Positions 14,101 through 58,044 of a stretch of 64,000 nt of DNA are shown piece after piece. The stretch is from Candidatus Moraniibacteriota bacterium (GTDB lineage: Bacteria; Patescibacteriota; Minisyncoccia; Moranbacterales; UBA2206). Position numbers and translations under genes: made by a program. Location: positions 64,620 through 128,619 of the forward strand of contig JBAQUL010000026.1 in assembly GCA_049297495.1 (NCBI GenBank). Direction: 5' to 3'. The notes beneath the pieces were generated by a model, which made no database searches, had not been told where the DNA came from, and worked only from the letters and a program-made list of their open reading frames with translations. The stretch's first letter is position 1; each line of letters opens with the position of its first letter.

Positions 14101-17100
14101 CTGTAACATTTCCAGAAATAGTATTCCTATAGTATAGTGTTTTTTGAGAACTGCCGGCTGATAATGAAAAATGATTAATGAGGTCTCCCGAATTGAAAGT
14201 TTGACTCAGAGAGAATTTGCCACTGCCATCAGAAGAGGAAAGATAGATCTCAAGAGGACTATCTGGGGCTACTTCGACTCCATATTGATTTTGAATTCTC
14301 AGATCAAATGTCTTATAATTTCCTGCAATCAGTGAGGAATTACCATTGACTAACTGCATCCTCGCCGGACTACCCGGGGCGATCATTTGCACTTGTGCGG
14401 CATTGACAACTCCCAGATCAATAGGATTATCAAGAGTTGATTGATCACTAGCTGTTACAGTTGGCATACCACTTTTCGTATCTTTATAGTAAAATATTGT
14501 CCCGCCACTACCCGCAACGACTGAGATTGAAGTTATCGTTCCAGAAAAACCCGAGTTCTGACTGAAACTACCCTCACTCGACGAAGAATACAGATAGAGC
14601 TCGATTGGTTGCGCAAGTATTTTCGCATTTCCAAATTCATCCCTGAAGCCAAGTGACATCACACTGGAGGCTTGCCCTGCCACGAGCGTCTGACCAGAAG
14701 ACAGAAACACCATACTTGCCAAATCGCCTGCTGACACAACATAGTTTTGTGTTGCGGCTACCAAGCCACTGTTTGGAAACTCATCAGCTGTAAGTGCAAA
14801 TGTTCCGGTTGAAGTATCTTTGTAGTAGAAAAATGCATCATTGGATCCGCTCGGCAAGGTCAGACTCGCAATATCCGCCCAGGCGCCCCCATTTTGCAAG
14901 GAAAACTTTCCAGCAGTGGAAGTTGTTGCAAGGCTTATCGCAAGATCACTTACGGCATTTGAAACGTTATTATAACTATCTCGAAGTTGGATTCGCATTT
15001 GATCGGAAATAAGACCCGCCATTTTTGTTTGTGGCGCATTCATAAAAACAACCTTCGCCGGACTGCCAGCAGTAACTGTTAATTGCTGCGCATCACCGAT
15101 CACATTATTCGCATTTGCACCCAAAGAATATGTACCAGCAATTCTGTTTGTATAATACACGGTAGCGACGCTTGATCCAATTGGCACAATCACTTGATTG
15201 ATTGCTTCAGCATTCTCTTGGGCAGCTATTTTGAAGGCGCTCAAGCCTAAAGGACTAGATGTTAGATTAATGCTAACTGGCACTCCAATAATTGCTGGGC
15301 TACCATCACTTTTTTCCAGCTCAATCGTTATCACCGTGCTATAGCTACCAGCCGAAATTGCTTGTTCACCAGATGTAATTTTCAATTTATTGGGCGTATC
15401 ACCAATGACATCGATTGAAGCGACTGCATTTATAATATCCAAATCTGGATTATCGAGCAGCGCATAATCAGACACGGTAACATTTTTTGTTCCTGGCATT
15501 TGATCTTGATAATAAAAGCTCGCCGTACTCGTCCCAGCTAAGATTGTTACTGTGGATAAATTCCATGGTCCGCTTGAATTAGTCGCGAAACTACCCTGAA
15601 CAGGGCTATAAAGATAGACGGTTTTGTCACTATCGACAAGTACTGCATTACCATATTGATCTTGAGCTTGAACCGTGAAAACATTTGAAGCAGTTCCGAC
15701 TGCAACGGAAGTTGGCTTAGCAATCAAATTCAATTTTTGCACCGCGCCCGCTCCAAATGTTATTTCTTTCGTGCCAGCAATCCAACCTTCCGAAATATTT
15801 TCGTCTACTGTAAGCATTACAGTGCCAGCCGTCGTATCTTTAAAATAGACAGTTTTTGTATATTGTTTTGCTGGAATAGTTACCTGAGTGATGGAATTCC
15901 AAGGAGAACTACTCAAAGAAAATTGACCAGTACTACCAGATTTTGTCAAGTCAAAAATCGTATCACTATTCACTGAAACAGGCAGGCTGGAATTGGTTTG
16001 AGTTTGAATTGTCACCGCTATCGCGTTCCCCACCTGCGAAGCATTAACACTACTCATAATGATTTTTTCAATTGAACCGTTAATCAAGTTTTCTTGCTGA
16101 GAATTAGAAGTAAACTCGGAAGCACTGATGGTAATGATTGGGCTATTAACAATTGCATCTCGATAATAGAAGCTTTTCAAACTTTCTCCAACCAAAAGGG
16201 AAATATCTAAGTCATTCGTCCAATCACTCAAACCATCCAAAGAAAACTCTCCCGTCAAACTATTAGAAACTATATTGGCAGTCATATCAGCCGAGGCATT
16301 AACTCTTATGTCGTTACTATCAGTCAAATAAAAGCTAACTGAACTCGATGGAGTATTTAGTACAATCGTCTGGGGTGCAGACTGGAAGAAAAATTTAGCC
16401 GCGACGCCAGCATTAATTGTTTCTTGCTGAGAAGTTTCTATTATTCCGCCACTTGTCACAGTAATGGTTGGCGTACCGACATTCCAATCTTTATAGTAGA
16501 AAGTAGCGGTACTCTGGCCATTTGCTAACACATAGCTGCTAACTGATGACCATGGAGAAGGCGCACTAGAAAATTGCGCGTGCGTGCTATCCGAACTTAA
16601 TCCAAGCGTTACATTGCCAACTGCTCCGGTCGGGTTATCATACTGATCCCGAAGCTGAACAGTCAATTGTCCTGAATCTAGCGCAAGAATTGTCTGAGAG
16701 TTGCTCGTGAAAGTCAGATGATGCGCAGATCCACCAGCTACAGTAATATCTTGGTTAGCTCCGACGATACCACTCGCAGTTACGGAAATATTTTTCGTTC
16801 CAGCTAACGTATCGCGATAATAAAAATTAACCGCTGAAACACCAGGATTTGCATTAACACTAGCAATATTCCATGGACCTTCTGAAAATGCTGCAAATCC
16901 CCCACTCAAGGCTTCTGTCGAAGCCAGATTGATGACTAAAGAATTATCTAGTAATTTAACATTTCCGTATTGGTCTCGGAATTGAAGGATGAAGGCTGAA
17001 GTAGGATTACCAGCTGAGACGGAAAAAGGATTATTTGCAAAAATCATCTGATACGCACTACTCGCAGAAATATTAAATGAGTAAGTTCCAGACACTATGC

Positions 17101-20100
17101 CATTTTTCGCCGCCGTAATTGTCGGCGACCCAGAGGCAGTATCCTTGTAATAAAAAGTAGTGCTACTTTGACCACTAGCAATAACCACCTGATTGGTTTC
17201 AAACAGGCCGTTATTCTCTGTGTCAAATTTCCCTCCTCCGGAAATAGAGCTCAAGTTAACCGTTGTATCAGCTGTCACTGGAACAAGCTGATCATAATTA
17301 TTGAGCGCTGTCAAAGACAAAGCTCCTGATGGCGATCCAGCGGTAAGAACATTTGACGCACAACTCAAAGCGAATTTTTTTACGACGCCATAAATTATGC
17401 TCTCGTTTTGCGTCGCATTCAAAAGCCCCTGATCAGGAGAATCGGGATATGCAAAATCAGAAATGGTGATTTGCGGATTACCAATTGCAGTATCTTTATA
17501 GTAAAACTCCGCGTTATTCGATCCACTGTTAATCGCAACGGTTGATATCACTTGATCAGCTGCATCAAGAAATACTCCTGTCGCAGACGATGAATGGAGA
17601 TAGAGCGTAGTGTCTGCGCTGACGTTTTGAATATTGCCAAAAGCATCTTGCGTCTCAATCACCATCACTGCACTTTTTTGACCAAGCTCTAATGTTTGCG
17701 CTTCAGTATTCATACTTAGCTTATTAAGCGCTCCAGCTGCAACGTTAAAAGCAAGTGTTCCAGAAGTTTTTCCCGCGGACGCTGCCGTCACTAAAGGAGA
17801 ACCAATTGCTGTATCTTTATAGTAAAAACTGACCGATGATTGATCTTGCAAAATCGTAGCAGAATTTATACTGCCATCAAATACTCCGGAAGAATTAGTA
17901 TCAAATCTTCCAGTCGATGATGCCGAAGATAAATTAACGACCAAATCACTTGACACCGGAACATTGATATTATTAACATTATAGCTTTTGACCGTAACTA
18001 ATGGCGAAACTACGCCAGCCGACAAACTCACATCTGCCGCTTCCAATGTTAGTTTCGTTATCGCCCCCCAATTAATTGTTTCAGTTTGTGTGACATTTTC
18101 CAATCCTTGATCTGGAGAATCGGGATAAGCATAGTCAGAAAAAGTAAGCACGGGACTACCAGCCACATCATCCTTGCAATAAACCGTTGCGCTACTTGTT
18201 CCTGCCAATATTACTACCTGAGTAATCGTGTCGCCAGTTGCATCCAAAAATATTCCTGTTGCTGAGCTAGAATGAAGATGGATAGTTTTATCCGCAACGA
18301 CATTTTGCATATTATTATAGCCATCTTGGGTACGGATATTCACAGCCGCACTCTTTTGTCCTGCTGATAAGGTCTGAGGCGCAGAAGCTATGGCCAGCCT
18401 ACTAGCCGCTCCAGCCGCTACACTCAAAGCTAGTGTTCCAGCTGTTTTTCCTGCGGCTGAAACGGTAAGCACTGGAGATCCAGCTACATTGTCTTTGTAA
18501 TAAATTATTGCGGCAGATTGGTTTTGTAATATTGTAACAGAAGTGATTGACCCATCAAATACTCCAGAACTGCTAATATCAAACTTGCCCGCAGTTGAAG
18601 AAGAGAGACTAGCAGTCAAATCCGAAGAGGTTGGGATATTGATATTTGACGAATTATACACCTTAACATTAACCACTCCAGAAGATGTTCCCGCGACTAA
18701 ATTACTATCACTTATGTCTAATGCTAATTTTGTCACGTTACCATAATTAATATTGGCAATTTGCGTTGCATTCAAAAGTCCCTGATCAGGAGAGTCTGGA
18801 TAGGAATAATCTGAAACAGTGATTTGTGGAGTGCCAATTGTCACATCCTTATAGTAAAGGGTGCTATTACTTGTTCCGGAACTAATTACTATTTCAGTAA
18901 CAACATTTCCAATGGAATCAAAGAATGTTCCAGAAAGAGAGCTAGCATATAAATATATACTAGTGTCACTCGCCAACTTTCTTGAATTGCCATATTGATC
19001 TTGCGTTTCAATGTTAATCGCAGCACTTTTTTGACCAACTTCAAGTGTTTGCGCTGAGCTTATGATAACAATTTTATTCGCGTCACCTCCTAGGATATCA
19101 AATGTCTTCGTTGCAGCAGTTATCCCGCCAGAAGCCGCCGTCACAACAGGCGATCCAACTTTTGTATCTTTATAGTAAAAATCCGCTGATAATTGTCCAG
19201 CTGGAATCGTGACGCTTGTCACACTTCCGTCATATGCACCAGCATTACTAGTATCAAATTTTCCAGTTTCACTAGCGCTAGTTGATAAGTTAACGGTTAA
19301 ATCAGTTGGAGCTGGAATATTTACATCATTGGAATTATATGATTTAACCGTGATTACCGCTGAAGACGCACCAGCAACTAAATTAGTATTATCAACATTT
19401 AACATTAACTTAGAAATACTACCTGGGACGAGCGATTCGTTTTGCGCTGCATCAGAAATTCCCACTCCCCCATCCGGACTAGTATTATTGTCCGAAGCAG
19501 TAATGGAAGCCGACGCAGCATAATTCGATTGCTTGAAATAAAAATTTGCCGTGGATTGACTGTTAGGAATAATAACACTGGAAATAGTGGTTAAAAATGA
19601 ACTACTGCTTGAAAATATTCCACCAGAAGTGGCATACAAATAGACTATTGTATCTTCAACAACCTGAGCCGGATTATTATATTGATCTTGGGCTTGAATT
19701 GAAATCTGCGGAGAAGCTGCTCCTAGTACTGATTCGAAAGCAGCAGTAGCAAAAACGTATTTTGCCACCGCTCCGCCACTAATCGTCAAATCTTTATTGT
19801 CGTCAGTAAGACCAGCAGCACCATTGGCCGGATAAGCATCGGAAAGAATAATATTATCCACACCAGCAACTTGATTTTTGTAATAGATTGTAACTGAAGA
19901 TTGCCCGGCTGGAATAATAACTGAAAAGGAATTTACCCAATCATCCACATTATTGTAGGCAGAAAATTTTCCTGTGGGAGAATTGGTTGTCAAATATATT
20001 CTCTCATTACTGAGTGTTGTAACGATATTGCCATAAATATCTTCGAGAGAAGCAGTTATTGGATCGGAAATATTCCCCGCGGAGACATTTTGACTTGCCA

Positions 20101-23100
20101 CATTAAGAGTAAGTTTAGCTGCTCCACCAGTCAGAGTAGTTTCAGTCTGAGTATCATTAAGCCATCCAACATCAATACCCTCACCCACATCTTCTCGAAC
20201 AGTCAAACCATGTGGACCAAGCGCACTATCCTTATAATAAAAACTTGCTGTTGTAGAATTCTGCTTAATTGTCACAATAAATGGCTCAGTTCCGCTCCAG
20301 TTACTTTCTCCATCGATTGAAAATTGACCAGTCACAGAATCCACGTACACATAAATTGAAGTGTCGACACTAGCTGGAATGCCCTGACCGATAATATCTT
20401 GAGCTTGAATTGTGATAGCTGAACTATGGCTATCAATACCGAACGATTGTGGTGAAGAAATTATTTTTAATTTAGAAATAGTTCCCGCGTTAGGTGTTGT
20501 CACTACAATTCCTGTCTGAGTTCCAGTGATATTCGCATCAGTCGTATCCGTCACTACTACATTCCAACTTCCAACAGTAGTAAACGCCACTCCGTTGACA
20601 AATGTATGCTCGCCTAGCATACCCGCAGTAAAAGTAAAATCAGGAGGAAGTACTGCCCCAATATCTGTCGAAGTAAAATGCACCAACCCTACATAGTCGT
20701 GTAATGGCTGCCCATCAAAATCAACAGCTTGCACCGTTACTGAACTAGGAATTCCCGCCTTAACTGGATTAGTAATGCCAGTCACCAATAAACGATACCG
20801 ACTTGTAACAGATATTTGTTGACTTGCTGCAGTGCTACCAGGGATGGCCGTTGCTCTAGCTTCAATCGTTGGTGTTCCTTTAATATTATCTTTGTAGTAA
20901 AAAGTTACCGACGATTGGCCAGCGGGTAAAACAACTGAATTATAATTCCAACGATTAGAGACGTCTTCCGTCAAACTCCTCGCAAAGAATCCTGAAGTTG
21001 AAGAGGATGACAGATCTAATGCAATATCTTCTGGTGCAACAAGAACATTGCCATCGGTATCTCGAGCCTGAACTGTAAAATTTCCAATTTCTGTTTCTCG
21101 CAAAGTTGCTGGAAATGAGCTAAAAGCATACTTATCAGGATAATAGGCGAATCCGCGAGTGAGTGTTGCACTTGTATCATCTGGATTTGTGATAGTTACA
21201 TCCACAAATCCAGCACTATGCGCCGGAGTAGTCGCAGTGATTGTTGTTGAATCAATAAGCTGAACATTTGCAGCAGGTGTTCCGCCGAAAGTCGCAGGAA
21301 GGAATGTCGCAGTGTACGGATTCGTCTGAGGAGCAAAATTTGATGTCCAACGCGCAATGCCTTTGGAAATTCTGATTTCATCAAGATAACCTTGAAAATC
21401 ATTACCTGCATATCTTCCAATAGACAGTGGGTTAGAATTCGAGCCAAGACTAGCAGATGAAGTCCAACTGTCTGTTTGCGTTCCATTTTTGAAGGCATAG
21501 AAATTATTTTCACTTCTCACCACAGCTAAATGAACCCACTGATTGAGCGTGATCGCTCCTAACGATTTGCCGACGGCAACATCCCAAGCACCACCACTAG
21601 ACATATATATTAACAAATTTCCTCCCGCAGAATAGCCCAAAAGAAAAGGCGCATAACCAGATGTGCTATCCCTTGCAATTGAAGATCTGGTACTATCACT
21701 AGCAGTGCGATATTCCCACCAATCTACCGTAAAATCGCCTGCACCAAAATTAAAATCATTATTCGTCGGCACGGTCAAATAATCTCCCGTTCCATCAAAG
21801 TATGCACTTGCGCCTCCAATTTTAGATTGAACAGTTGAAATTTTAGCACCACCATTAGCGATAACTGTCTTAGCAACTGTTTCACTGTCTGCAAACGCAG
21901 TAGAATTATTTGTTCCATCAGCATGAAGCAAAAGCTTTGTGAAATTTTCTGTGAAAAAGTTTGTCCCAATTATTGTAACATCAGTTCCACCACCTGGAGG
22001 ACCAACACTTGGCACAACAGAAAGTATCGTTGGCGGTGGTTCTGTAAAAACAATTCCGCTGGTCAACGTTCCACTTAATCCATCTGGATTAGTCACGACA
22101 ACATCAAATGCTCCGGTCAAGTGAGCGGGAGTGACAACATTAATCGTATTAGCATCAATTCCATTTACACTTGTCCCGGCTGTTCCACCAAAAGTAACCG
22201 TGGGAGTTCCGACAAAATTTGTTCCACTGATGGTGACTGAATTTCCGCCGGTTTTTGGCACGCTACCTGGAGTAATAGAAGACACCGCGGGAGGATTGTT
22301 GTATGTAAAACCATTAGCTCGTGAACCCACCGTACCGTCTGGATTAGTAATTACTACATTTACCGCACCAGCGCTATGAACGGGAGTGGTGGCAGTAAGG
22401 GTTGTTGGACTAACTACTTGGACATTGGTCGCCAAGGTTCCACCGAAAGATACCAAATTACTTGCCATGGGAACAAAGCTGGATGTCCAACGAGCAATGC
22501 CTTTTGAAACCCGGAGATCATCAAAATAACCCAAAAATGGCTGGGAAGTAAAATCAGCAGAATTTATTCCAAAAATCAAAGCCTGATCTGAATTTGAACC
22601 AGCTACTATAGATTGAGAAGCTTCAAGATTTCCATCTAAAAACATCCGGCAGATTGATCCATCATAAGTAAATGCCGCGTGATGCCAGGCATTTTGTGTT
22701 ATGCTTGTGGTTCCTGTAAGATTCGGCGCCGCTCCACTTTGATATCCTTGTGGAAACCACCCTAATTTATTTGCGCTGGTTACATAGGTAGCCCAATTAT
22801 TCGTTGCATTATAGTTCTGCCAACTATTTAAAAAAGTTTCTTGTACGTTTGACTGCGTTCGATAAAACCAATAATCAATCGTAAAGGATCCTGAGCCGAA
22901 ATTAAAATCTGTTGATGCGCCGACTGATAACCAATCCCCTGCCCCATCAAAATATGCGCTTGATCCTCCAAATTTAGATTGAGCTGTTAAAATTTTCGCA
23001 TTACCATTGGGTGTTGCTGACTTGGGAATTGTCTCGCTATCTACAAAGGTAGTAGAATTATTTGTTCCGTCAGCATGAAGAAGCAACTTATCGTATGTAT

Positions 23101-25843
23101 CCGCAATAATTCCTGAGGAAAAACCCGTCCCCGTAATCGTCACCGGTGTTCCCCCGTCAGGAGGACCGGCACTTGGAGAAACAGAAGTAATCGTCGGTGG
23201 GGGTTCGGTAAAAATAATCCCGTTGGTCAGTGTTCCGCTTACCCCATCTGAATTAGTTACAACAACATCAAAAGTTCCCGCTGAATGCGTCGGAGTAACA
23301 ACGCTGATTGTATTAGCATCAATTCTGTTTACACTCGTCCCAGCTGTTTCACCAAATGTGACAGAAGGAGTTTCGCTGAAATTTGTTCCCGTAATAGTGA
23401 CTGAACTTCCTCCAGTTTTTATTACACTGCTCGGAGTGACAGAGGTAACTGTGGGAGGATTGTTATATGCGAAACCATTAGTTAGTGTCCCCGTTGAACT
23501 GTCAGGATTGGTAACAATAACATCTACAGCTCCCGTGGTATGGGCGGGAATAACCGTTGTGATCGTTGTCGAATTAATAAATTGCGTATTAGTAGCAGTA
23601 ATTCCGCCAAAAGTGACGGTTGGCGATGGTGTTAGATAGCGCACAATAACAATTCCCGAGCCGCCTTTGCCTCCTGCGCTATAAGCAGTTTGATAGTTTC
23701 CTGCCCCTCCTCCGCCTCCAGTATTCGCTTGTCCCGGATTTCCAGGATTATTCATACCGCCTGCGCCAGAGTTTCCGCCACCACCCTTACCGCCAACTCC
23801 AATAGAGCCATTCAAATACGTTCCGCCACCGCCACCGCCTGCAAACCATCCGCCGCCAGGATAATTAATATCACCGCCTACACTTGCAAATTGAGGATAG
23901 CTTACTCCGACACCTCCAGCGCCTCCAGTTGTAGATATTCCATTAACACCAACGCTTCCTGCGCCACCGCCACCGCCTGCGCCATAGTTTCCACCCAATT
24001 GTGTTCCATATCCTCCTGCATTTCCCTGCCCGCTCGTTCCAGCTGCTCCCTGAAGACCTATTTGAGCTGATGCTCCACCACCCGATCCACCAATTAATGG
24101 CGCTCCACCCAGTTGTCCAGAACCGCCACCGCCGCCAATAGCAACTAGAGAACTAAAAGTTGAATTACTACCAGAAACACCAGGAGAAGTACTTCCACCA
24201 AGCCCACCGTTACCACCAGTACCAACTGTAACAGAATAGGCTTGTGCCGTAACAGCGAAAGCTGGATTATATATAACACCACCTGCACCTCCTCCTCCGC
24301 CAATAGCTTCACCGCCACCGCCACCGCCACCAATGACCAACACCTCAACATTTCGAGCATTAGGCACTGTAAAAGTTCCATTCGCAGTAAATGTATGAAT
24401 CGTATATACACCTGAAGTCGTGACAGTTCCGCCTGTTGCAAGACTTGCCGCTGCAAAATTCGTTCCCGTAATCGTTACGTTCGTCCCACCCGCAGTCGAA
24501 CCAATATTGGGAGTAATAGCAGAAATTGTTGGCGGTGGTTCGGTGAAAATTATTCCACTGGTCAGTGCTCCACTTTGTCCATCAGGATTAGTTACGACAA
24601 TATCAAGTATTCCTGATGTATGTGCCGGAGTAACTACACTAATTGTATTAGCATCAATCAGATTCACACTAGTGCCGGCTGTTCCACCAAATGTGACAGT
24701 TGGTGTGTCAGTAAAATTTGATCCGGTAATAGTGACTGAACTTCCTCCAGTTTTTATTACACTGCTCGGAGTGACAGAGGTAACTGTGGGAGGATTGCTA
24801 TAGGTAAAACCGTTGGTTAGTGTGCCCGTTAAACCGTCCGAACCGATAACAGAAACGTCAACCGCACCAGCACTATGAGCAGGAGTCACTACTGTAATAT
24901 TTGCTGAATCAGCTACTTGCACATTAGCAGCTGCAGTACCCCCAAAAGTTACGGAGCCCGTAGAATATGGACTTGTCGAAGGCGTAAAATTTGCTGTCCA
25001 ACGAGCAATACCCTTGGAAATGCGTACTTCATCGATGTAACCTTGAAAATCTTTATTGTTATTGTATCTTCCGATAGAAAGAGGATTGGCATTAGCAGCA
25101 AGACTGAGAGAGGATGTCCAAGTATCGGTTTGCACTCCATTCTTAAAAGCATAAAAAGTATTTCCACTTCTTACCACTGCCAGATGGACCCATTGATTGA
25201 GAGTTATCGCTCCCAGCGTTCTTCCAACAGAGACATCCCAAGCTCCACCACTAGACATGTATATTAATAAATTTGCTCCAGAAGCATAACCAAAAAGAAA
25301 AGACTGGTAGCTGGAAGTGGTATCTCTCGCAATTGCAGGTTTTCCAGCAGTAGATGAAGTCCGATATTCCCACCAATCAACCGTGAAATCACCAGAACCA
25401 AAGTTAAAATCTGCGCTAGTGGGAACTGTTAAAAAATCTCCTGTTCCATCAAAATATCCAGATGCTCCTCCAAATTTAGATTGATTAGTCAAAATTTTAG
25501 CATCCCCATTGGCAGTCACGGTTTTGGGAGTTGTTTCGCTATCAGCAAAAGCGGTGGAATTATTTGTTCCATCTGCATGAAGCGAGAGCTTGGTATATGA
25601 ATCGATGCCTCCGGCAGAAAAGTTTGTCCCGGTGATCGTAACATTTGTTCCTCCAGCAGGCGGACCAGCTGCAGGATTGACGGATGATACTGTCGGCGCA
25701 CTGGCATTGGAAGTTTGCGCATAAGCAACCGCAAAGAAAAATAGTGCTACAAAAATAACTTTTAGTCCGATTTTCGAACTAAAAATTCTTTTTATTTTAC
25801 CTGAAAAGCTTGAATATTTTAAATAAGAAATATTTTGATTCAC
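10520..25843 (-). CDS. Giant secreted surface protein (5107 aa): signal peptide, three LamG/ConA-like + IPT/TIG modules, glycine-rich block, about 25 Ig-like FYYKD repeats, C-terminal tandem 95-aa repeats
   Basis: A single uninterrupted ORF. N-terminal signal peptide (KVIFVALFFFAVAYAQTSNASA). Repeated PxxGxxxGGTxVTITGxNF TIG-like units. LamG-like modules (LHADGTNNST...DWWEYR...YAFKNG...ISKGIARWT) occur three times. Many repeats are about 180 aa and end in FYYKDT. Confidence 0.85.
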   Translation of the reverse strand: MNQNISYLKYSSFSGKIKRIFSSKIGLKVIFVALFFFAVAYAQTSNASAPTVSSVNPAAGPPAGGTNVTITGTNFSAGGIDSYTKLSLHADGTNNSTAFADSETTPKTVTANGDAKILTNQSKFGGASGYFDGTGDFLTVPTSADFNFGSGDFTVDWWEYRTSSTAGKPAIARDTTSSYQSFLFGYASGANLLIYMSSGGAWDVSVGRTLGAITLNQWVHLAVVRSGNTFYAFKNGVQTDTWTSSLSLAANANPLSIGRYNNNKDFQGYIDEVRISKGIARWTANFTPSTSPYSTGSVTFGGTAAANVQVADSANITVVTPAHSAGAVDVSVIGSDGLTGTLTNGFTYSNPPTVTSVTPSSVIKTGGSSVTITGSNFTDTPTVTFGGTAGTSVNLIDANTISVVTPAHTSGILDIVVTNPDGQSGALTSGIIFTEPPPTISAITPNIGSTAGGTNVTITGTNFAAASLATGGTVTTSGVYTIHTFTANGTFTVPNARNVEVLVIGGGGGGGEAIGGGGGAGGVIYNPAFAVTAQAYSVTVGTGGNGGLGGSTSPGVSGSNSTFSSLVAIGGGGGSGQLGGAPLIGGSGGGASAQIGLQGAAGTSGQGNAGGYGTQLGGNYGAGGGGGAGSVGVNGISTTGGAGGVGVSYPQFASVGGDINYPGGGWFAGGGGGGTYLNGSIGVGGKGGGGNSGAGGMNNPGNPGQANTGGGGGAGNYQTAYSAGGKGGSGIVIVRYLTPSPTVTFGGITATNTQFINSTTITTVIPAHTTGAVDVIVTNPDSSTGTLTNGFAYNNPPTVTSVTPSSVIKTGGSSVTITGTNFSETPSVTFGETAGTSVNRIDANTISVVTPTHSAGTFDVVVTNSDGVSGTLTNGIIFTEPPPTITSVSPSAGPPDGGTPVTITGTGFSSGIIADTYDKLLLHADGTNNSTTFVDSETIPKSATPNGNAKILTAQSKFGGSSAYFDGAGDWLSVGASTDFNFGSGSFTIDYWFYRTQSNVQETFLNSWQNYNATNNWATYVTSANKLGWFPQGYQSGAAPNLTGTTSITQNAWHHAAFTYDGSICRMFLDGNLEASQSIVAGSNSDQALIFGINSADFTSQPFLGYFDDLRVSKGIARWTSSFVPMASNLVSFGGTLATNVQVVSPTTLTATTPVHSAGAVNVVITNPDGTVGSRANGFTYNNPPAVSSITPGSVPKTGGNSVTISGTNFVGTPTVTFGGTAGTSVNGIDANTINVVTPAHLTGAFDVVVTNPDGLSGTLTSGIVFTEPPPTILSVVPSVGPPGGGTDVTIIGTNFFTENFTKLLLHADGTNNSTAFADSETVAKTVIANGGAKISTVQSKIGGASAYFDGTGDYLTVPTNNDFNFGAGDFTVDWWEYRTASDSTRSSIARDSTSGYAPFLLGYSAGGNLLIYMSSGGAWDVAVGKSLGAITLNQWVHLAVVRSENNFYAFKNGTQTDSWTSSASLGSNSNPLSIGRYAGNDFQGYLDEIRISKGIARWTSNFAPQTNPYTATFLPATFGGTPAANVQLIDSTTITATTPAHSAGFVDVTITNPDDTSATLTRGFAYYPDKYAFSSFPATLRETEIGNFTVQARDTDGNVLVAPEDIALDLSSSSTSGFFARSLTEDVSNRWNYNSVVLPAGQSSVTFYYKDNIKGTPTIEARATAIPGSTAASQQISVTSRYRLLVTGITNPVKAGIPSSVTVQAVDFDGQPLHDYVGLVHFTSTDIGAVLPPDFTFTAGMLGEHTFVNGVAFTTVGSWNVVVTDTTDANITGTQTGIVVTTPNAGTISKLKIISSPQSFGIDSHSSAITIQAQDIIGQGIPASVDTSIYVYVDSVTGQFSIDGESNWSGTEPFIVTIKQNSTTASFYYKDSALGPHGLTVREDVGEGIDVGWLNDTQTETTLTGGAAKLTLNVASQNVSAGNISDPITASLEDIYGNIVTTLSNERIYLTTNSPTGKFSAYNNVDDWVNSFSVIIPAGQSSVTIYYKNQVAGVDNIILSDAYPANGAAGLTDDNKDLTISGGAVAKYVFATAAFESVLGAASPQISIQAQDQYNNPAQVVEDTIVYLYATSGGIFSSSSSFLTTISSVIIPNSQSTANFYFKQSNYAASASITASDNNTSPDGGVGISDAAQNESLVPGSISKLMLNVDNTNLVAGASSAVITVKSYNSNDVNIPAPTDLTVNLSTSASETGKFDTSNAGAYDGSVTSVTIPAGQLSADFYYKDTKVGSPVVTAASGGITAATKTFDILGGDANKIVIISSAQTLEVGQKSAAINIETQDQYGNSRKLASDTSIYLYASSLSGTFFDSIGNVVTEIVISSGTSNSTLYYKDVTIGTPQITVSDYSYPDSPDQGLLNATQIANINYGNVTKLALDISDSNLVAGTSSGVVNVKVYNSSNINIPTSSDLTASLSSSTAGKFDISSSGVFDGSITSVTILQNQSAAIIYYKDNVAGSPVLTVSAAGKTAGTLALSVAAGAASRLAIASAPQTLSAGQKSAAVNIRTQDGYNNMQNVVADKTIHLHSSSATGIFLDATGDTITQVVILAGTSSATVYCKDDVAGSPVLTFSDYAYPDSPDQGLENVTQTETINWGAITKLTLEAADVSLSAGVVSPLVTVKSYNVNNINVPVSSDLVVNLSSASSTGRFDTNSSGVFDGSINSATILQDQSSVSFYYKDTAIGSPLVTAASAGKTSGTLAFNVAAGALNKLSMNTEAQTLELGQKSAVMVIETQDAFGNIQNVSADTTLYLHSSSATGVFLDAADQVISTVAINSGSNNAEFYYKDTAIGNPQITISDFAYPDSPDQGLLNATQNESIIYGVVKKFALSCASNVLTAGSPSGALSLTALNNYDQLVPVTADTTVNLSSISGGGKFDTENNGLFETNQVVIASGQSSTTFYYKDTASGSPTITAAKNGIVSGTYSFNISASSAYQMIFANNPFSVSAGNPTSAFILQFRDQYGNVKLLDNSLVINLASTEALSGGFAAFSEGPWNIASVNANPGVSAVNFYYRDTLAGTKNISVTASGIVGANQDITVAGGSAHHLTFTSNSQTILALDSGQLTVQLRDQYDNPTGAVGNVTLGLSSDSTHAQFSSAPSPWSSVSSYVLANGQSTATFYYKDWNVGTPTITVTSGGIIETSQQETINAGVAAKFFFQSAPQTIVLNTPSSSVSFYLTDSNDIRVNASADMTANIVSNSLTGEFSLDGLSDWTNDLDISLLVGESLKSFYYRDAIVNSPIITISASEFTSNSQQENLINGSIEKIIMSSVNASQVGNAIAVTIQTQTNSSLPVSVNSDTIFDLTKSGSTGQFSLSSSPWNSITQVTIPAKQYTKTVYFKDTTAGTVMLTVDENISEGWIAGTKEITFGAGAVQKLNLIAKPTSVAVGTASNVFTVQAQDQYGNAVLVDSDKTVYLYSPVQGSFATNSSGPWNLSTVTILAGTSTASFYYQDQMPGTKNVTVSDYALLDNPDLDIINAVASIDVIGDTPNKLKITSGEQAISAGSYSTVITIELEKSDGSPAIIGVPVSINLTSSPLGLSAFKIAAQENAEAINQVIVPIGSSVATVYYTNRIAGTYSLGANANNVIGDAQQLTVTAGSPAKVVFMNAPQTKMAGLISDQMRIQLRDSYNNVSNAVSDLAISLATTSTAGKFSLQNGGAWADIASLTLPSGSNDAFFYYKDTSTGTFALTADEFPNSGLVAATQNYVVSAGDLASMVFLSSGQTLVAGQASSVMSLGFRDEFGNAKILAQPIELYLYSSSSEGSFSQNSGFSGTITSISVVAGSGGTIFYYKDTKSGMPTVTASDQSTLDNPIDLGVVNAAQVQMIAPGSPARMQLVNGNSSLIAGNYKTFDLRIQNQYGVEVAPDSPLEIYLSSSDGSGKFSLSQTFNSGDLINHFSLSAGSSQKTLYYRNTISGNVTVSFSEVSTPPESPDSGIVNTSQSFSVLPSAVSNLVYLTSAQDLSAGEVSSEITFGVRDAFGNIVVSASDLPVYLNSTSGTGKFSASTNFSDGNIISQSIISAGSSVANFYYQDETIGGPVITVSDQTPLDNPDVGLLNAVQTFSVRAGNVAKLIFDQNLGAVIAGGISDPITIKTQNTFSVDAPVLGDAIVYLFSSSAGGSFALLPSGPWGITSVVIPGGQNSIQVYYRDSNSGTPLVTASDTDVSAPDTLWTNATGTVSVGAGVITQLVFVTAPQTIVTRHPSEPMQVQARNAYGNPTSVTTDQRIYLRSSSNQSEFLASVGGSWGASYVTMLAGQDATNFYYHDFSVGEPTLTASDNLPPIPDTGLTNAVQTEVIAAQVMDHFLVTNISDPQIQGEPSSVVVMAQDAEDYVISSYSGTIHFASSDLDAALPLDYTFIPATDSGLHTFGNGVSFLHAGEKWVGVTDGASISGVQEDITVISNTAGPVNKIKFTDTDSPLVVNKNIASKPMTIRMFDADDRNTNAGLGGYPIRLSSGSNSAKYSLNPNGPWIEDGLFSIPENLSFIVVYYKDSEAGAEVISVSDWDGGVDDLNIANDSLPVIVRSIKINVNTHLEINNNGHYYQDSPVIFSKDDTGYYYGRVNFDLSLIDEVTGAAKLVDVSITWKDPSGAVLATQAVLNVSSYSYNINPIEGIALSAGNYTLEVSAIDVATGVTGESIIDIPVSGWVDNVDYSADTLTIGNNLNFTVETKQNGVFADPENLVVVWKDNNGNDVPGDQYIKNLSGLTKIGTGKYSGSIITNGLVADKKYFLYTKVYDASNNTLAEDNHRDIVMQNNPALAPKNFQIEKILTSVPPAAETYNLEFNWDVSLGATKYNLYRTQNKFSGLFEDPCSISQIKFGHRYGDPGATTPFCELSGLMQDGADDATSWVKMAEIDGLQVEYTVPWAEIQSDLSNNVYYYILRAENSIGESGYSTMAVSLKKNFNTNTTKANINWTSLPYATKYQKASDIIADMEGGIGNGNNAKVSSITRWRPDTQNILSYYYDTFTHHWMGTDFTVNPGDGISVQLSKNIANFNWTIAGSDVQNAKTFTTNITKANINWTSLPYTTKYQKASDMVRDMEGGIGDGNNAKISSITRWRPDTQNILSYYYDTFTHQWMGTDFSVNPGDGVSIQLSKNTTSFDWSQPLVINPYK
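23391..23462. repeat. Exact 72-bp direct repeat copy 1 inside giant gene (second copy at 24726-24797)
   Basis: GTAATAGTGACTGAACTTCCTCCAGTTTTTATTACACTGCTCGGAGTGACAGAGGTAACTGTGGGAGGATTG is identical at both sites. It reflects duplicated LamG/TIG modules. Confidence 0.8.
23563..24343 (-). repeat. GC-rich low-complexity block encoding an about 260-aa poly-Gly/Gly-Ala-Ser-Asn region (VLVIGGGGGGGEAIGGGGGAGG...) of the giant protein
   Basis: A local GC spike (ccgccaccgcc runs) in an otherwise AT-rich gene. The ORFs on both strands here (23690-24070 +, 24145-24456 -) are shadows of the repetitive sequence. Confidence 0.7.
24726..24797. repeat. Exact 72-bp direct repeat copy 2 inside giant gene
   Basis: Identical to 23391-23462. 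Confidence 0.8.
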
Positions 25844-25948
25844 TTTTATTTTACCTTAGCTCTCCCTCACCTTTCCTCTCTGCCCTATTAGCTTAAATCC
25901 AGCTCCGCAAAAAGCAGAAAAAATTCATTACAAAGTGGCCTGCTAAGA

Positions 25949-26629
25949 CTATTTTAGCCGATCTAATCCTGCCTTGGCGGCTTGATTTTCCGGCTGCATA
26001 TCCAGCACTTTTTGGAAATTCTTCTTGGCGCCATCTTTGTCACCAGAACCTTCATAGAGAATGCCCAAAAGAACATAAGCGTCGGCACTATCGGGGTTTT
26101 GACTAATTGCCTCTTGATAAACCTTTACCGCTTCATCCTTTTTGTCCAATGAATATTGATACATATTTCCAAGATTAATGTAGCTCGTCATTACTTTTGG
26201 ATCAAGACTGATCGCTTCTTTATATTCCTTAATCGCTTCTTCGTAATTTCCTTGATCTCGAAGCGCATTGGCCAAATTATTATGCGCCACGGCATTATTA
26301 CCATCCACCTTTATTTGCTTTCGATATGTCATCTCCGCTCCAGCCACATCACCTGTGGCATATTGCGCCACAGCATAGCCTTGCAAATCATTTGGATTAT
26401 TATTTTCTGCCTTATTTTTCAATTCAGGTAAGCTATTTTTATACTGCTCAACCAATGATCCGGCGCCATTGGTCTTCTTATTGTCAATATTTTTCTTGGC
26501 CGAAAACTTTGCCACGATTGCACTCCTTTTTGCGTATCCACCAATAAGCCCGGTCAATATGACAACGGCGAGTACCAGTAAAATTATTTTTCTCTTTCTT
26601 GAAGCTGGTTCCACATTTCTATCTTCCAT
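25949..26629 (-). CDS. Membrane-anchored tetratricopeptide-repeat (TPR) protein
   Basis: An N-terminal TM helix (ILLVLAVVILTGLIGGYA) followed by at least four TPR units (e.g. AHNNLANALRDQGNYEEAIKEYKEAISLDP). Confidence 0.75.
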   Translation of the reverse strand: MEDRNVEPASRKRKIILLVLAVVILTGLIGGYAKRSAIVAKFSAKKNIDNKKTNGAGSLVEQYKNSLPELKNKAENNNPNDLQGYAVAQYATGDVAGAEMTYRKQIKVDGNNAVAHNNLANALRDQGNYEEAIKEYKEAISLDPKVMTSYINLGNMYQYSLDKKDEAVKVYQEAISQNPDSADAYVLLGILYEGSGDKDGAKKNFQKVLDMQPENQAAKAGLDRLK

Positions 26630-26704
26630 ATTATATTTTACTAAATTTAATTTTAATTAGACCTCAGGTTATCTTAACACTATATCAATCTATGCGCAAA
26701 GAAA

Positions 26705-29700
26705 TTATTTCGAAGAAAATAACCGTAGAAGCTTTTTCAATAAATCGCTGCCATCCTTAACTTGAAAATTGACTGGTGCACTCTTTTCATCTTCGCCAAC
26801 TACTTTCGCTGAAAGAAAATTATCACTACTTCCCAATTTTTCACCAAAGATCATCATTTTCCAATTGCCCTGCTTATCGCTTGTTGTAGAGCCAATTTCT
26901 TGACCATCACGCCGAGAAACTACGACTGTCCGATGGGGCATAGCCGTTCCCGACACAGTGACTCCCGCATCAGTATCCATCACTAATGAGCCATCCCGTG
27001 GTGAAAGAATGGTTGGTACTGATGATCCGGAGACAGTAATTGTAGCAGCCTGATTATTCACATCTACCTGTTTACTTTGCGGACTGGCATAATAGAAATT
27101 ATTTATTATAATCGTATAATTATTATTAGCAACATTTTTATTGGTAATATTATGATCACCTTCATTTGTGGTATTGTTTTCTGTTACCGTACTAGAAGAA
27201 TTGCTAGTTGCTGCCGGGCTAGCGGAGACTACGTCGGGCTTGATATAAATTGATTGCAAGCCAGACAAGGCTTCTGTGCTTGAAGCTGTTATGGTCATAA
27301 GACCGGAAGCCGAATCTTGATAGTAAAGGTTAGCACAACTAGAGCCGGAAGAAATGGTAATGGAAGTTTTGTCCCAAGGACCAGCAAAATTTGTCGCAAA
27401 TTTACCCGTCGCCGAATTAGCGGCCAGGCTTATCGCCTTATTACTATCAGCTGATACATTGTTGCCTTCGACATTTTGGAGGCAAACAGTAATCGTGCCA
27501 CTAGCAATATTTTTTGCCACTTCTTGCGTCAAGGTCGTAAAGACTAGTCTTGTTCCCGTGAATCCACCGCCACCAGCATTAGTGACATATAGCACAGTAG
27601 ACGCTAGCCCTGGAACGCTTGCCGTTACAGTTTCTAGGGAATCCGATGAGCCCAATGTCCAGCTCACCGAAGCAAGCCCCGTCTCTCCAACAATGACTGA
27701 CACGGGACTAACAGATCCAGAGCCACTGGCTGGAGTGAACATAACGGTTTTGCCACTCGCCGGATTGCCACTACTATCAATTACTTTCGCGACTAAAGGT
27801 TGAGGCAATGTAGTCGAAGGACTTCCTGTCTGATTATTACCAGAGACATAGGTCAAAACAAATGACTCAGCATAACTAACAACAATATTATTTGACGTCC
27901 CTGAAATAGTACTGTCAGTGGCGATGATTTGAGTTATTTCCGCCTTCACTAGTGTAGTATCCAATTGAGTACTTGCCACACCACCGACAAATGTTACCCC
28001 GGCGGTATACACAGGATGCGTACCAGAATCACTGTCGTCCGGACCAGAATAGCTAATTGTTTTTGAGCCACTATAGTCCGTTGCCACATTGCCATACAAA
28101 TCAAGCGCTCGAAGAGACGCAATAATAAATGGTAAATTGACAATCGCTGTTGCTGGCGCCATTATATTAAATTGATTTGTATCAGCGGGCTTCACAACTA
28201 TCGACAAAGAATCACCACTTAGTCCACCACTACTAACGGTTAGTGTCACAGTTTCCGCCTTGTATAGAGTCGTGCTGACAGCATTATTTTGTCCATCACT
28301 AAAATCAACGGATGAGGAATATACTGGAGCAGTGCCACTCGGACTTGCATGTGGACCACTATAACTAACGACCTTTGTGCCATTATACGCTGTCACCACA
28401 TTTCCAAATGCATCGATTGCTTTGATGGTAATTGCAAAAGGTACTCCGGCAATCACCTCGGAGGGCGCAGTTACATCTAGCAATGTCGGCACAGAAGGCA
28501 CTCCATCTGCATAAAAAACAATCGGCGTTCCAAAAAGTCCCGCAACTCGTGCCTCACCCTGATTAAGTCCTGCTCCTGACATCGAACCCAACCTCCAAAC
28601 AGTTTGCGCCCTACCATCAACATCAGTGACAGCAGAACCCGGTGCCATTGATCCATCCCCAATTGTCACAGCGAATGTGACGGCCTGTCCACTTTTAGGA
28701 TTTCCATAAACATCTTTCACTAAAACTACCAAAGGATTGGCCAAATTAGAATTGACGATACCAATCTGATTATTACCAGAATAATATTCAATTGATCCAG
28801 CTGCGCCAGCTTGAACAGCAATATCATTACTGTCTCCACTAATTGCGCCTTCTGTAATATGGATTGTTGCCGTCTCAGTTCTAAAAAGTTCGGTCATGAG
28901 TGCCGTCGTTGAAACGCCATTAACAAATTCAACTGCGGTTGTGTAGCTAGGACTATCTCCCAGAGCACTCGCAGACGGTCCGGAATAAACAATAGTCTTG
29001 TCACCCGAATATCCCGTGGCGACATTACCATACTGATCTTGCGCTGTAATTGAGGTAAGACTGAAACTAACTCCAGCCGTTACTGTTGCTGGAGAAACTA
29101 AATGCAAATGCGTAGCCGTTCCCGCAGAAACAACAACATTTCCCGACTGACCGGAAATCGAGCCTTGAGTAAGCGTAATCTTGACTGTTTCCGCCCTGAC
29201 AAGCACAATCGGCGCTATGCTTGAAGCCACGCCAGACGTAAAAATTGCTGTTACGGAACTAGTTGGCGCACCAGATTCTGGCCCGCTCGCAGGACCGGTT
29301 AGTATCAAGGTTTTACTGCCATCATATCCCAAAGCCACATTGCCATATTGATCCTTAGCTGTAATTTGCGTATTAGAAAAACCCACGCCAGTCGTAGCAG
29401 TCGCCGGAGCCGAAACATCAAAAGTTCGAGCGCTACCAGCCTCGACAGTAATCGTTCCGGTAACATCAGTCATACCACTGCCAGCATCAAAATGAATCAC
29501 TCCTGATTGTGGAGTCATATGTGGTGAAAAACTTATCGTACTAGCATTATTCACATCAATCTGCGCAAAACTATCCCCACTGTCAAAACCGGTCACAGTC
29601 CAATGTCCCGTTGTCGCATTATTCACAAAATTTCCCGAAACGTCATAGCCTGCCATCCAAAGATTCAAAGGAGCATCAACATTTATTGTGACATTAGAAA

Positions 29701-31957
29701 TCTCAGCTCCCCCTGCGCCTAATGCATTATTAATTCTCACACTATTTGTCGCGCCAGCTTGAATCGTTGTGCTAGCATTACCAACTTTTCCATTATCACT
29801 AGTAGCTGTCAGAGTATAAGTCCCAATAAGCCCCGTGTATTTTAATTTTCCAGCTAGATTTGCAGTTCCACCAACAAAATCACTAGAAAGATCCAGCACT
29901 GGTGTGCCGCTGTCCTGAACTGTCATAATTCCGCTGCCACTCACTGAAAATAGCACCCCTTGACCAACGGTCGATGCATCATAATCGATAACCACATTGC
30001 CATACACATCTTGAGCAGTCACATTAGCAGTGACAAAATAAGTATCATTGATTTGAGGAGAATTTATGCTCATTCCAAATTTAGCAAAAACACCAGGACC
30101 AAAACTAACTGCATCACTCAATGAATTTGCCGATCCACTAACTGCCCTAAATTGCCGACTGCCAGACAGCCCTCCATATTTTAACTTGCCAGATAAATCA
30201 CAAACACCATTTGTAAAATTACCGACTTGATTGAGGACATTATTATTTCCCGATCCCAGCCCACTTACTATTCCCGCCGCAACCGATTCGGTGATAGTCA
30301 CATTATGCACCGAAGCGTCAAAGTCAGTGACAACATTTCCGTCAGCGTCCTTGACCGTTAAAGTATCCACCCCTGAAAAAGCAGCGTCCATAACTTGAGG
30401 AGAAGTCAATGAGAAATCAAACGAAGCATAATCACCCGCCGAAATATTCACCACTCCGCTTGTTGTGGTTTTTGCATCAGCAGATGTGGCTGTAAAATTA
30501 TAGTTTCCGATAATTCCAGAAAAAATTAGTTTTGCTGTTAAGTTTGCAACACCATTAGAAAAATCGGCATCAAGATTGAGCTTATTCACGCCAGACAATC
30601 CACTGACAGCTCCATTGGCTGGAGCAACGGTGAACGTCACATTATTAGTCGCTGCCTGAAAATCAGTTTTAACGTTTCCAAATGCATCATAAGCAGTGAG
30701 CGTATTGGTTCCAGTAAAAGTTTTTCGATTCTGCTGAGTTGCTGCTAAGGTCAAATTTAAACTGCCAAAAACACCAGGACCAACTGCCACCACTTGAGTT
30801 CCGTCTGTAAGCGCGGGCGAAACTGGTGCAGTCTGGTGAGCGGTCATCATCCAGGTGGGAGAGGATATTTTTTCGTCATAATAGCAAAATTGAACCGATG
30901 AATTGCCAGTTGCCACAACAAATTCAGTAATTTCCGTACTAGTACAAACACCGCCAGAAACACTATAGAATTTCTTATTGACCCCACTAGAATCTGATGA
31001 AAGCGCCACAGTCGTATCAGCCTTCACCGCTTGAACATTTCCCGCCACGTCACGAGTTTCCACTGTGATTACTGCAGATTTATTGCCTGCCGCTATAGTT
31101 CTTTGCGGCGAAGAAAAAACTAAACGAGTTGGATCGCTTGAAGCATTTGCCACAGCTGACGACGGACCTTGCGCACTAGATTCAAAGTAGTTGGGCGTAT
31201 GCACTGTCCAAGTAAAAAGCACTGACAACTTATATGTATAACTATGACCAGATTGCACTGTCGTGTCCGCGTAAGTCACAGCTCCACCGGCATTTTGTGT
31301 CGCAAGTGCTGCTAATTTTTGATAAGCGCCACTATTATCACTACGATAAACCCCATAACCAGTTATCGTATTATGTGCCGTTCCACCTGCCGCGCCAGTA
31401 TCGTTATTCCAAAGACCAGTCCACTGCAAGTCTACTGCCGCAACTGTCGCGCTAGTAATTGAAGGAGTGGGAATCGGTTCCATCACAATAGCGGATAAGC
31501 CATAATGCAGACCAGAATTCCAAATATCATCTTGAGTAATCTGCCTTTGCCCAGAAGCTCCAACCCAAGAAACTTCAGACCAACCATTAAGCCCACTATA
31601 TGTTTCCGCCACAGTCACCGCCGTATCACCAACTGTAATCGAAGGCGACCAAGAAGAGCTTCCCACGTCCCAATTGAAATAAGCCGCTATTCCAGCGCCA
31701 TCAGCCGGATAAATCTGATCAATATCTGGAGTATCAGAACGAGAAAAATTATTATTAATATTTAAACGATAACCGGTCACAACCGCCTTGCTATTCGGAC
31801 TATTAGCGTCTCCCGTAAGAAGACTTCCGCCACTCCGATAGGGCACATAACCGCGCAAAGAAAAAATATCCCCCGCTTTGGCGGGAGTTGCCCAAAAAAT
31901 AATCGAGAAAATGCTTAAAAAGAAAAAAGTTTTTTTTATTTTATTTTCGTATTTCAT
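26705..31957 (-). CDS. Large secreted protein (about 1750 aa) with tandem bacterial Ig-like (Big) repeats
   Basis: Signal peptide (MKYENKIKKTFFFLSIFSIIFWATPAKA). Repeated about 100-aa units (GVSFSLTSITAQDQYGNVATGYSGDKTIVYSGP...). A C-terminal Ig-like domain. The ORF-track start at 31972 overlaps the upstream gene by 4 bp. The ATG at 31957 gives a canonical signal peptide. Confidence 0.8.
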   Translation of the reverse strand: MKYENKIKKTFFFLSIFSIIFWATPAKAGDIFSLRGYVPYRSGGSLLTGDANSPNSKAVVTGYRLNINNNFSRSDTPDIDQIYPADGAGIAAYFNWDVGSSSWSPSITVGDTAVTVAETYSGLNGWSEVSWVGASGQRQITQDDIWNSGLHYGLSAIVMEPIPTPSITSATVAAVDLQWTGLWNNDTGAAGGTAHNTITGYGVYRSDNSGAYQKLAALATQNAGGAVTYADTTVQSGHSYTYKLSVLFTWTVHTPNYFESSAQGPSSAVANASSDPTRLVFSSPQRTIAAGNKSAVITVETRDVAGNVQAVKADTTVALSSDSSGVNKKFYSVSGGVCTSTEITEFVVATGNSSVQFCYYDEKISSPTWMMTAHQTAPVSPALTDGTQVVAVGPGVFGSLNLTLAATQQNRKTFTGTNTLTAYDAFGNVKTDFQAATNNVTFTVAPANGAVSGLSGVNKLNLDADFSNGVANLTAKLIFSGIIGNYNFTATSADAKTTTSGVVNISAGDYASFDFSLTSPQVMDAAFSGVDTLTVKDADGNVVTDFDASVHNVTITESVAAGIVSGLGSGNNNVLNQVGNFTNGVCDLSGKLKYGGLSGSRQFRAVSGSANSLSDAVSFGPGVFAKFGMSINSPQINDTYFVTANVTAQDVYGNVVIDYDASTVGQGVLFSVSGSGIMTVQDSGTPVLDLSSDFVGGTANLAGKLKYTGLIGTYTLTATSDNGKVGNASTTIQAGATNSVRINNALGAGGAEISNVTINVDAPLNLWMAGYDVSGNFVNNATTGHWTVTGFDSGDSFAQIDVNNASTISFSPHMTPQSGVIHFDAGSGMTDVTGTITVEAGSARTFDVSAPATATTGVGFSNTQITAKDQYGNVALGYDGSKTLILTGPASGPESGAPTSSVTAIFTSGVASSIAPIVLVRAETVKITLTQGSISGQSGNVVVSAGTATHLHLVSPATVTAGVSFSLTSITAQDQYGNVATGYSGDKTIVYSGPSASALGDSPSYTTAVEFVNGVSTTALMTELFRTETATIHITEGAISGDSNDIAVQAGAAGSIEYYSGNNQIGIVNSNLANPLVVLVKDVYGNPKSGQAVTFAVTIGDGSMAPGSAVTDVDGRAQTVWRLGSMSGAGLNQGEARVAGLFGTPIVFYADGVPSVPTLLDVTAPSEVIAGVPFAITIKAIDAFGNVVTAYNGTKVVSYSGPHASPSGTAPVYSSSVDFSDGQNNAVSTTLYKAETVTLTVSSGGLSGDSLSIVVKPADTNQFNIMAPATAIVNLPFIIASLRALDLYGNVATDYSGSKTISYSGPDDSDSGTHPVYTAGVTFVGGVASTQLDTTLVKAEITQIIATDSTISGTSNNIVVSYAESFVLTYVSGNNQTGSPSTTLPQPLVAKVIDSSGNPASGKTVMFTPASGSGSVSPVSVIVGETGLASVSWTLGSSDSLETVTASVPGLASTVLYVTNAGGGGFTGTRLVFTTLTQEVAKNIASGTITVCLQNVEGNNVSADSNKAISLAANSATGKFATNFAGPWDKTSITISSGSSCANLYYQDSASGLMTITASSTEALSGLQSIYIKPDVVSASPAATSNSSSTVTENNTTNEGDHNITNKNVANNNYTIIINNFYYASPQSKQVDVNNQAATITVSGSSVPTILSPRDGSLVMDTDAGVTVSGTAMPHRTVVVSRRDGQEIGSTTSDKQGNWKMMIFGEKLGSSDNFLSAKVVGEDEKSAPVNFQVKDGSDLLKKLLRLFSSK

Positions 31958-31968
31958 GCAATAAGTTA

Positions 31969-33114: not shown

Positions 33115-33225
33115 AAAAAAACGAGGAATCGACACCTCGGGAAAGGTTGCTATTATTCGCAACTAGAGGATAACCTTTCCATCGCTAGTATCATATCAGG
33201 GAATCAGTAAATATGAAAGGCTGCA

Positions 33226-33266
33226 AATAAAAAACACTTCGACGTAAATTCGAAGTGTTTTTTTGA
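33226..33266. terminator. Bidirectional rho-independent terminator between the beta-helix gene and the next gene
   Basis: AAAAAA-ACACTTCG-ACGTAAAT-TCGAAGTGT-TTTTTTT. Confidence 0.65.
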
Positions 33267-33279
33267 TCTACCATGATTG

Positions 33280-36411: not shown

Positions 36412-36574
36412 ACCAATATTCCCCTTATTTGAGCTATTTACTGCGCCGCTAAATGAAGTCAGCGACCAAAAAGCATAGCACAACTGCGAAATTTGTCAAG
36501 GGCGAAAGGCACATAAAAAGGCCCTTGAAATGAATAATTCCAAGGACCTCACTTTTCCAATACGTAACGGCACA

Positions 36575-37021: not shown

Positions 37022-37173
37022 AATACCTCCTGACAATCCCCCTTACTGAAATATCGGCAATATTGCCACAATCGCATTGATATAAAAAATTGGTAAAAAG
37101 CTAATATAATATATTAGCATATAATTATACCTTTGTCAAATTCGGGAATGCAAATTCTATTCTGAAATGCAAA

Positions 37174-37208: not shown

Positions 37209-37259
37209 GTCAATACAAACTAACTATCTACGGCACACCAAGCGCTCTGATTCGAACTC

Positions 37260-38160: not shown

Positions 38161-38164
38161 TAAC

Positions 38165-58042: not shown

Positions 58043-58044
58043 AC

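Follow-up and report, generated by a model that had tools for sequence, protein, structure and literature searches.

The 64,000-nucleotide stretch studied here (the window, to whose positions all coordinates refer; assembly GCA_049297495.1, contig JBAQUL010000026.1, positions 64,620–128,619) belongs to a Candidatus Moraniibacteriota bacterium and carries a giant surface-protein gene in which two separate segments of 72 nt are exactly identical. The gene occupies 10520–25843 on the minus strand and has 5,107 codons with a GTG start, as defined from the list of open reading frames (ORFs), the translation, Pfam matches, and self-comparison; a Logan gene call places the start at the same position. 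The translation opens with a Sec-type signal, in which KIKRIFSSK is followed by a hydrophobic stretch and AYA|Q, and continues into lectin-like cassettes, and neither Pfam nor the translation reveals a recognizable C-terminal anchor. The protein is laid out as an array of TIG domains and cassettes (residues 49–1568), an Ig-like stalk, and a C-terminal region. Pfam identifies 11 IPT/TIG (PF01833) stretches above the gathering score (259 bits), three Laminin_G_3 domains, and one Gly_rich_2 domain (PF21722) in the first 2,500 residues, and finds no match in the remainder. Self-comparison resolves approximately 25 diverged Ig-like repeats of about 112 residues each between residues ~1570 and ~4500, with protein identities of 25–60%. 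The C-terminal region contains two repeats of approximately 100 residues that are 81–85% identical at the protein level (10550–11158, residues 4896–5098) and have no Pfam match; they are also kept in two homologs described below, P0344 and P0393.

The two copies of the 72-mer lie at 24726–24797 (copy 1) and 23391–23462 (copy 2), both within this one ORF and in coding-strand orientation on the minus strand. Direct sequence comparison agrees with the first-pass annotation that they are identical, over exactly 72 nt, and the identity is sharply bounded, the next base differing at either end of both copies. Both encode the peptide NPPTVTSVTPSSVIKTGGSSVTIT, at residues 350–373 and 795–818, which makes up the N-terminal strands of two intact TIG domains, here termed b1 (copy 1) and b2 (copy 2, at the beginning of the domain). 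An all-against-all 25-mer scan of the 64 kb identified the 72-mer as the sole exact direct repeat longer than 25 nt; the second exact direct repeat found by this exhaustive comparison is 25 nt long (56625/58007), and no inverted repeat of at least 25 nt is present in the window. The copies are spaced by 1,335 nt, or 445 codons (23463–24797), and this interval encodes TIG b1 and a split TIG that contains the Gly_rich_2 domain.

The order of modules was parsed with local hidden Markov models (HMMs) for the N-terminal half (N) of the TIG, its C-terminal half (C), and the cassettes, and reads (N-LamG-C)(N C)(N-GlyRich-C)(N C)(N-LamG-C)(N C)(N-LamG-C). Over the N-terminal ~1,570 residues, four TIGs (a1–a4) are thus interrupted by a cassette after their first ~27 residues, in alternation with three intact TIGs (b1–b3). 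Joining the two halves of each split TIG in silico gives sequences that match positions 1–84, 1–82, 1–84, and 1–75 of the 84-position Pfam TIG profile with 57–70 bits, and this coverage supports true domain insertion into the TIGs. LamG cassettes, identified with Pfam and the local HMMs, are found inside a1 (24956–25606, residues 80–296), a3 (22457–23107, residues 913–1129), and a4 (21305–21952, residues 1298–1513). Split TIG a2 consists of an N-terminal half comprising strands A and B (24455–24535, residues 437–463; local HMM, spliced match 1–82 of 84), the Gly_rich_2 cassette (23636–24385, residues 487–736; Pfam E = 2.3e-19), which is the only copy in the gene, and a C-terminal half (23462–23620, residues 742–794; local HMM and spliced Pfam match). 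The intact TIGs are b1 (24542–24793, residues 351–434; local HMM parse and Pfam), b2 (23207–23458, residues 796–879; Pfam and local HMM), and a third paralog, b3 (22043–22294, residues 1184–1267; local HMM). The periods of successive units are 1164, 1335, and 1164 nt. The unit length of ~1.3 kb given in the first-pass annotation therefore describes the 1335 nt between the 72-mers but not the other units, and its account of a duplicated TIG/LamG unit needs correction: the LamG-bearing units are those of 1,164 nt, and the segment between the copies holds a TIG and a split TIG with Gly_rich_2 and no LamG.

The Gly_rich_2 cassette module has a 53% identical counterpart in the homolog P0074. A sequence search of the PDB with the split TIG and its Gly-rich insert (23459–24538, residues 436–795) returned no homolog of solved structure for the cassette; matches were confined to plexin, COE, and Met IPT N-termini, with E values of at least 0.0056. 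An AlphaFold2 prediction of the same module, made from a two-sequence alignment, has a predicted local distance difference test (pLDDT) score of 31, too low for the model to be of use.

Codon-by-codon alignment of three paralogous 513-nt units (U1, residues 296–466; U2, residues 741–911; U3, residues 1129–1299) sets the 72-mer apart from its surroundings. U1 and U2 are 74.7% identical at the DNA level overall and ~70% identical when the tract is left out, in agreement with the earlier description of an exact repeat embedded in diverged units of the giant gene; the corresponding identities are 68.0% for U1/U3 and 69.8% for U2/U3. The longest run of identity between U1 and U2 after the 72-mer is 17 nt. 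No shuffle of the codon columns reached a run of 72 nt (0 of 100,000; maximum 53 nt), and the longest runs of the U1/U3 and U2/U3 pairs, 16–17 nt, were matched by 24–39% of shuffles. Synonymous differences are absent from all 24 tract codons, compared with 47 of the 98 conserved-residue codons (~48%) in the flanks. The third paralog, TIG b3, lacks the tract and is 67–73% identical at that position. The signature is of the GENECONV type, a run length beyond the background divergence with synonymous sites included. Neither selection on the protein nor recent duplication can account for the 72-mer, the first being ruled out by the absence of synonymous differences across 24 codons and the second by flanks that are just ~70% identical. 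A localized copying event at the nucleotide level, as read from these alignments, can account for the identity.

The comparison was extended to related proteins. The exact 72-mer has no match in the genome contig and viral contig collections, and a protein-guided locus search of genome and metagenome contigs with the repeat-bounded unit retrieved only distant relatives of 38–48% identity; no conspecific allele was found among the sequence collections searched. A protein homolog search with residues 1–1570 was dominated by generic multi-TIG proteins and failed to bring up the giant protein itself. The alternation of cassette-bearing split TIGs with intact TIGs (21134–25843 of the window) is also present in P0344, P0393, P0074, P0310, and P0357. 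P0344 (5,027 residues) is the giant protein of a related metagenome-assembled genome (MAG), GCA_964500125.1, and over its final 1,540 residues it is collinear, at 48% identity, with the protein described here. Its modules are ordered LamG, TIG, Kelch propeller, TIG, LamG, TIG, TIG, LamG, with one extra TIG, so that its second cassette is a Kelch where the second cassette here is Gly-rich. P0393 (4,729 residues) has Gly-rich and LamG cassettes followed by an insert of ~330 residues and one of ~260 residues; as read from the sequence, the former resembles the Kelch repeats of P0344 and the latter is glycine-rich. P0074 has LamG then Gly-rich, the same order as here. P0357 (2,181 residues) carries four cassette-sized inserts of 275–282 residues, glycine-rich by sequence, and a perfect internal repeat of 522 residues (419–940 = 1312–1833), which would be either a very recent tandem duplication of two modules or a misassembly. 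From these sequences the module pattern is conserved, and the type and number of cassettes turn over in evolution.

Within the giant protein, the intact TIGs b1, b2, and b3 are 76–82% identical to one another and at most 61% identical to any TIG of P0344, P0393, or P0074, whereas the split TIGs are 59–63% identical to one another and 64–65% identical to foreign modules. Since the intact TIGs are closer to each other than to those of the homologs, the comparison indicates that these linkers evolve in concert, with the 72-mer as the probable newest patch of that process. In P0344, two adjacent intact TIGs share an exact repeat of 14 residues (1222–1235 and 1308–1321) beside the point, at approximately residue 1,311 of the 5,027, where Logan contig SRR8925823_78899 of that relative starts. 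This coincidence hints at a comparable identity island, 31 nt or longer, in the P0344 gene.

The interpretation we favor, with a probability of roughly 70%, is that the 72-mer marks a short stretch over which non-reciprocal recombination has taken place inside the gene, between paralogous intact TIG linkers, whether as gene conversion or as an equivalent template switch. In such an event 72 nt would have been copied between TIG b1 and TIG b2, and the 72-mer would be the latest, still unmutated patch in the homogenization of the intact TIGs. Conversion tracts are estimated at 50 to several hundred bp (PMC3924818), so that the length of 72 nt is compatible with gene conversion. The island of identity may sustain itself, with further exchanges starting inside it and aborting in the ~70% identical flanks. 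As a by-product, it would offer a legitimate but short substrate for rare unequal exchange, through which 23463–24797, that is, 445 codons comprising a TIG and the Gly-rich cassette, would be lost or doubled with the reading frame and the domains intact.

Several points weigh against gene conversion. Only an outgroup allele would show which copy was donor and which recipient, and how old the event is. Initiation of a RecA-type exchange is hard at ~70% identity where the other shared runs are no longer than 17 nt, which leaves the starting mechanism uncertain. Positions 32–41 of the tract are vouched for by the submitted assembly alone and not by read-level data, and the similarity of the b-type TIGs could stem in part from a lineage-specific duplication instead of conversion.

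It is unlikely, but worth weighing, that the 72-mers form an active hotspot, at which RecA-mediated unequal exchange now yields longer and shorter alleles and thereby a size- or cassette-variable surface protein. Minimal processing segments of 23–27 bp for RecBC and 44–90 bp for RecF have been reported (PMC12074656), and the 72 nt exceed the first and fall inside the second, so that an exchange of this type is physically possible; the spacing of 445 codons would preserve the frame. Cassette content varies among P0344, P0393, and P0357, the last with its perfect repeat of 522 residues, and a precedent exists in Salmonella, where direct repeats of 113 bp give rise to a reversible deletion of 2.5 kb (PMC12074656). 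On the other hand, no variant allele was seen, in collections that hold no conspecific sequence, and the MAG contig crosses both copies; as the 72-mer is shorter than an ordinary read, a common variant would normally be expected to branch the assembly. The frequency of exchange also drops with the distance between repeats (PMC12074656), and the order of LamG then Gly-rich is kept even in the distant homolog P0074. The gain and loss of modules through RecA that the first-pass annotation proposed is thus permitted by the length of the repeat and its in-frame spacing, and turnover is indeed seen among the homologs, but beyond the patch the repeats are only ~70% identical, unlike those of length-variable proteins (PMC8201768). 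As to the hotspot itself, nothing in the data indicates that one is active; they favor seeing the 72-mer as what recombination has left behind, the footprint of a gene conversion.

An artifact of assembly or polishing would require either that the copies are not truly identical, paralogous reads having been merged, or that the 1,335-nt loop has been given the wrong number of copies. Exact repeats in repeat-rich giant genes do cause fragmentation and mis-joins (bioRxiv 10.1101/2023.11.21.568195), and independent assemblies bear directly on this. Searches with the neighboring TPR protein and with the IMP dehydrogenase each recovered one contig of run SRR28062512 from Logan, whose contigs are built with k = 31. 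Contig SRR28062512_1760 (24,863 nt) is 100% identical to 24768–36614 of the window (11,847 nt) and breaks off at 24768, with exactly 30 nt of copy 1 included. Contig SRR28062512_14139 (30,078 nt) encodes a 3' fragment of the giant gene of 4,299 residues, ending at record position 12901; computed from the record coordinates, its first base falls at 23420, so that exactly the final 30 nt of copy 2 open the contig. Both contigs are on record from two samples. That they stop k − 1 = 30 nt inside the repeat is as expected of a true shared segment, since a de Bruijn graph breaks in this way where a segment has two entries and two exits, and implies that the ends of the tract are truly common to two contexts in the reads.

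The 72-mer is therefore demonstrably real and fragments short-k assemblies, and the warning of an assembly trouble spot in the first-pass annotation was justified. De Bruijn graphs with k below 72 collapse at the tract. At k = 31 the graph takes the form A-R-(B-R)n-C, and the contigs alone leave n unfixed, which counts in favor of an artifact. With k above 72, or with reads of ~100 nt or longer, the junctions would be resolved directly unless variant junctions exist. In addition, the two independent assemblies are concordant, the reading frame and domain pattern run unbroken through both copies, and 72 is not a standard k-mer size. Taken together, these observations make an artifact very improbable.

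A functional element at the nucleotide level that is kept in two copies (an RNA structure, internal promoter, recombinase site, or diversity-generating retroelement (DGR) repeat) could explain perfect conservation with synonymous sites included, but is an extremely remote prospect, given folding energies like those of shuffled sequences on either strand (z = −1.65 and −1.19), no Rfam family at the gathering score in the whole window, only 67–73% identity at the third paralogous position, and a Pfam scan of the 29 ORFs of 150 residues or more that revealed no reverse transcriptase, integrase, or transposase. The template repeat/variable repeat (TR/VR) pair of a DGR was excluded as a candidate, as the copies are identical where adenine differences are expected and no reverse-transcriptase domain was found in those 29 ORFs.

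The chromosomal surroundings comprise guaB, guaA, a GH28 enzyme, dihydroorotate dehydrogenase, and SAICAR synthetase, and no tRNA gene was found in the window. The IMP dehydrogenase is 100% identical to an NCBI/Logan protein labeled Candidatus Moraniibacteriota, and its next relatives are from Moranbacteria at 89% identity. Upstream of the giant gene and on the same strand (26705–42694) lie further large secreted or uncharacterized proteins of 1,755 residues (Big_1/Big_6), 397 residues, 1,067 residues (DUF5018), and 1,394 residues (no Pfam match), which, with the giant gene included, make up a surface-protein locus of ~32 kb. The order of the genes next to the giant gene differs when 25843–31972 is compared with contig CAZCMV010000010.1 of GCA_964500125.1 and with JGI Ga0485169_0052485. 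In the relative with the 62% TPR match the giant ortholog lies upstream of a 1,766-residue Big_1 gene and not downstream of the TPR gene, and what follows the TPR gene in the relative with the 92% TPR match is another TPR gene and a different gene with TIG domains. The 25-nt repeat at 56625/58007 lies in two near-identical 5' gene starts, 56590–56700 and 57972–58082 (ATGAAACGAGCAATTATTGT.CATTGTTGGG.AGGCTATCC, MKRAIIVHCWEGYP). One of these belongs to a Ser_hydrolase gene (56075–56644), the other to an apparently short or truncated paralog upstream of an SDR gene (57188–57916).

Biologically, the analysis documents concerted evolution of linker domains in a giant secreted protein of Moranbacteria, members of the candidate phyla radiation (CPR), and brings to light a conserved pattern of split TIG and cassette whose cassette content varies between homologs. 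In practical terms, the 72-nt repeat is a confirmed site at which short-k assemblies of the giant gene break; the copy number of the Gly-rich module rests on the submitted assembly, and the length of the protein is to be quoted with that caution. It is tempting to go further and regard the array of split and intact TIGs as a scaffold for cassette exchange, in which conversion homogenizes the linkers, identity islands serve as crossover points, and LamG, Kelch, and Gly-rich cassettes are swapped, lost, or multiplied within and between giant adhesin genes. We consider this proposal distinctly unlikely on the sequences at hand. Were it true, episymbiotic CPR bacteria could retarget their attachment to hosts, and cassette exchange through identity islands would be a simple route to the diversification of attachment proteins in such bacteria.

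Several known systems share features with the giant gene. Giant repeat-rich genes of Omnitrophota, encoding more than 30,000 residues, break short-read assemblies and end at contig edges (bioRxiv 10.1101/2023.11.21.568195). The gene described here is likewise broken at a repeat in the Logan contigs, but the Omnitrophota proteins have other domains and are far larger than this Moranbacteria protein of 5,107 residues, in which a single 72-nt repeat is responsible. In Salmonella Typhimurium, reversible deletion between the 113-bp direct repeats around wzy has been shown experimentally (PMC12074656). Both cases involve perfect direct repeats of ~100 bp that are a few kb apart and able to mediate precise loss of a segment; the Salmonella repeats are intergenic, whereas those described here are coding, and an exchange between them would be in frame and is hypothetical.

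Periscope proteins and other variable-length adhesins such as SasG, Aap, Rib, and Sgo_0707 have long, highly identical tandem repeats whose number varies at strain level (PMC8201768). The resemblance lies in large secreted Ig-like arrays and in intragenic recombination, which has been proposed to alter the number of modules (PMC8201768). However, the giant gene lacks the long tandem repeats of very high DNA identity that are the hallmark of these proteins: its units are 68–75% identical at the DNA level, its stalk repeats are 25–60% identical at the protein level, and no length variation is documented, differences in cassette number and type being known here between distant homologs only.

Among known phenomena, gene conversion between paralogous repeats of surface proteins comes closest, as described for the PE_PGRS/PPE families of M. 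tuberculosis (PMC12046097). In both cases short exact tracts are copied between diverged coding paralogs, leaving sharp-edged identity or clusters of variants in surface-exposed, repetitive proteins. The present case differs in that both paralogs are modules within a single gene of a CPR bacterium and lie 1.3 kb from each other, that the background identity of ~70% is far below that of the mycobacterial pairs, and that conversion is deduced from one genome and not from a comparison between strains. The finding adds one more case of a well-known process, which is commonplace in large modular surface proteins.

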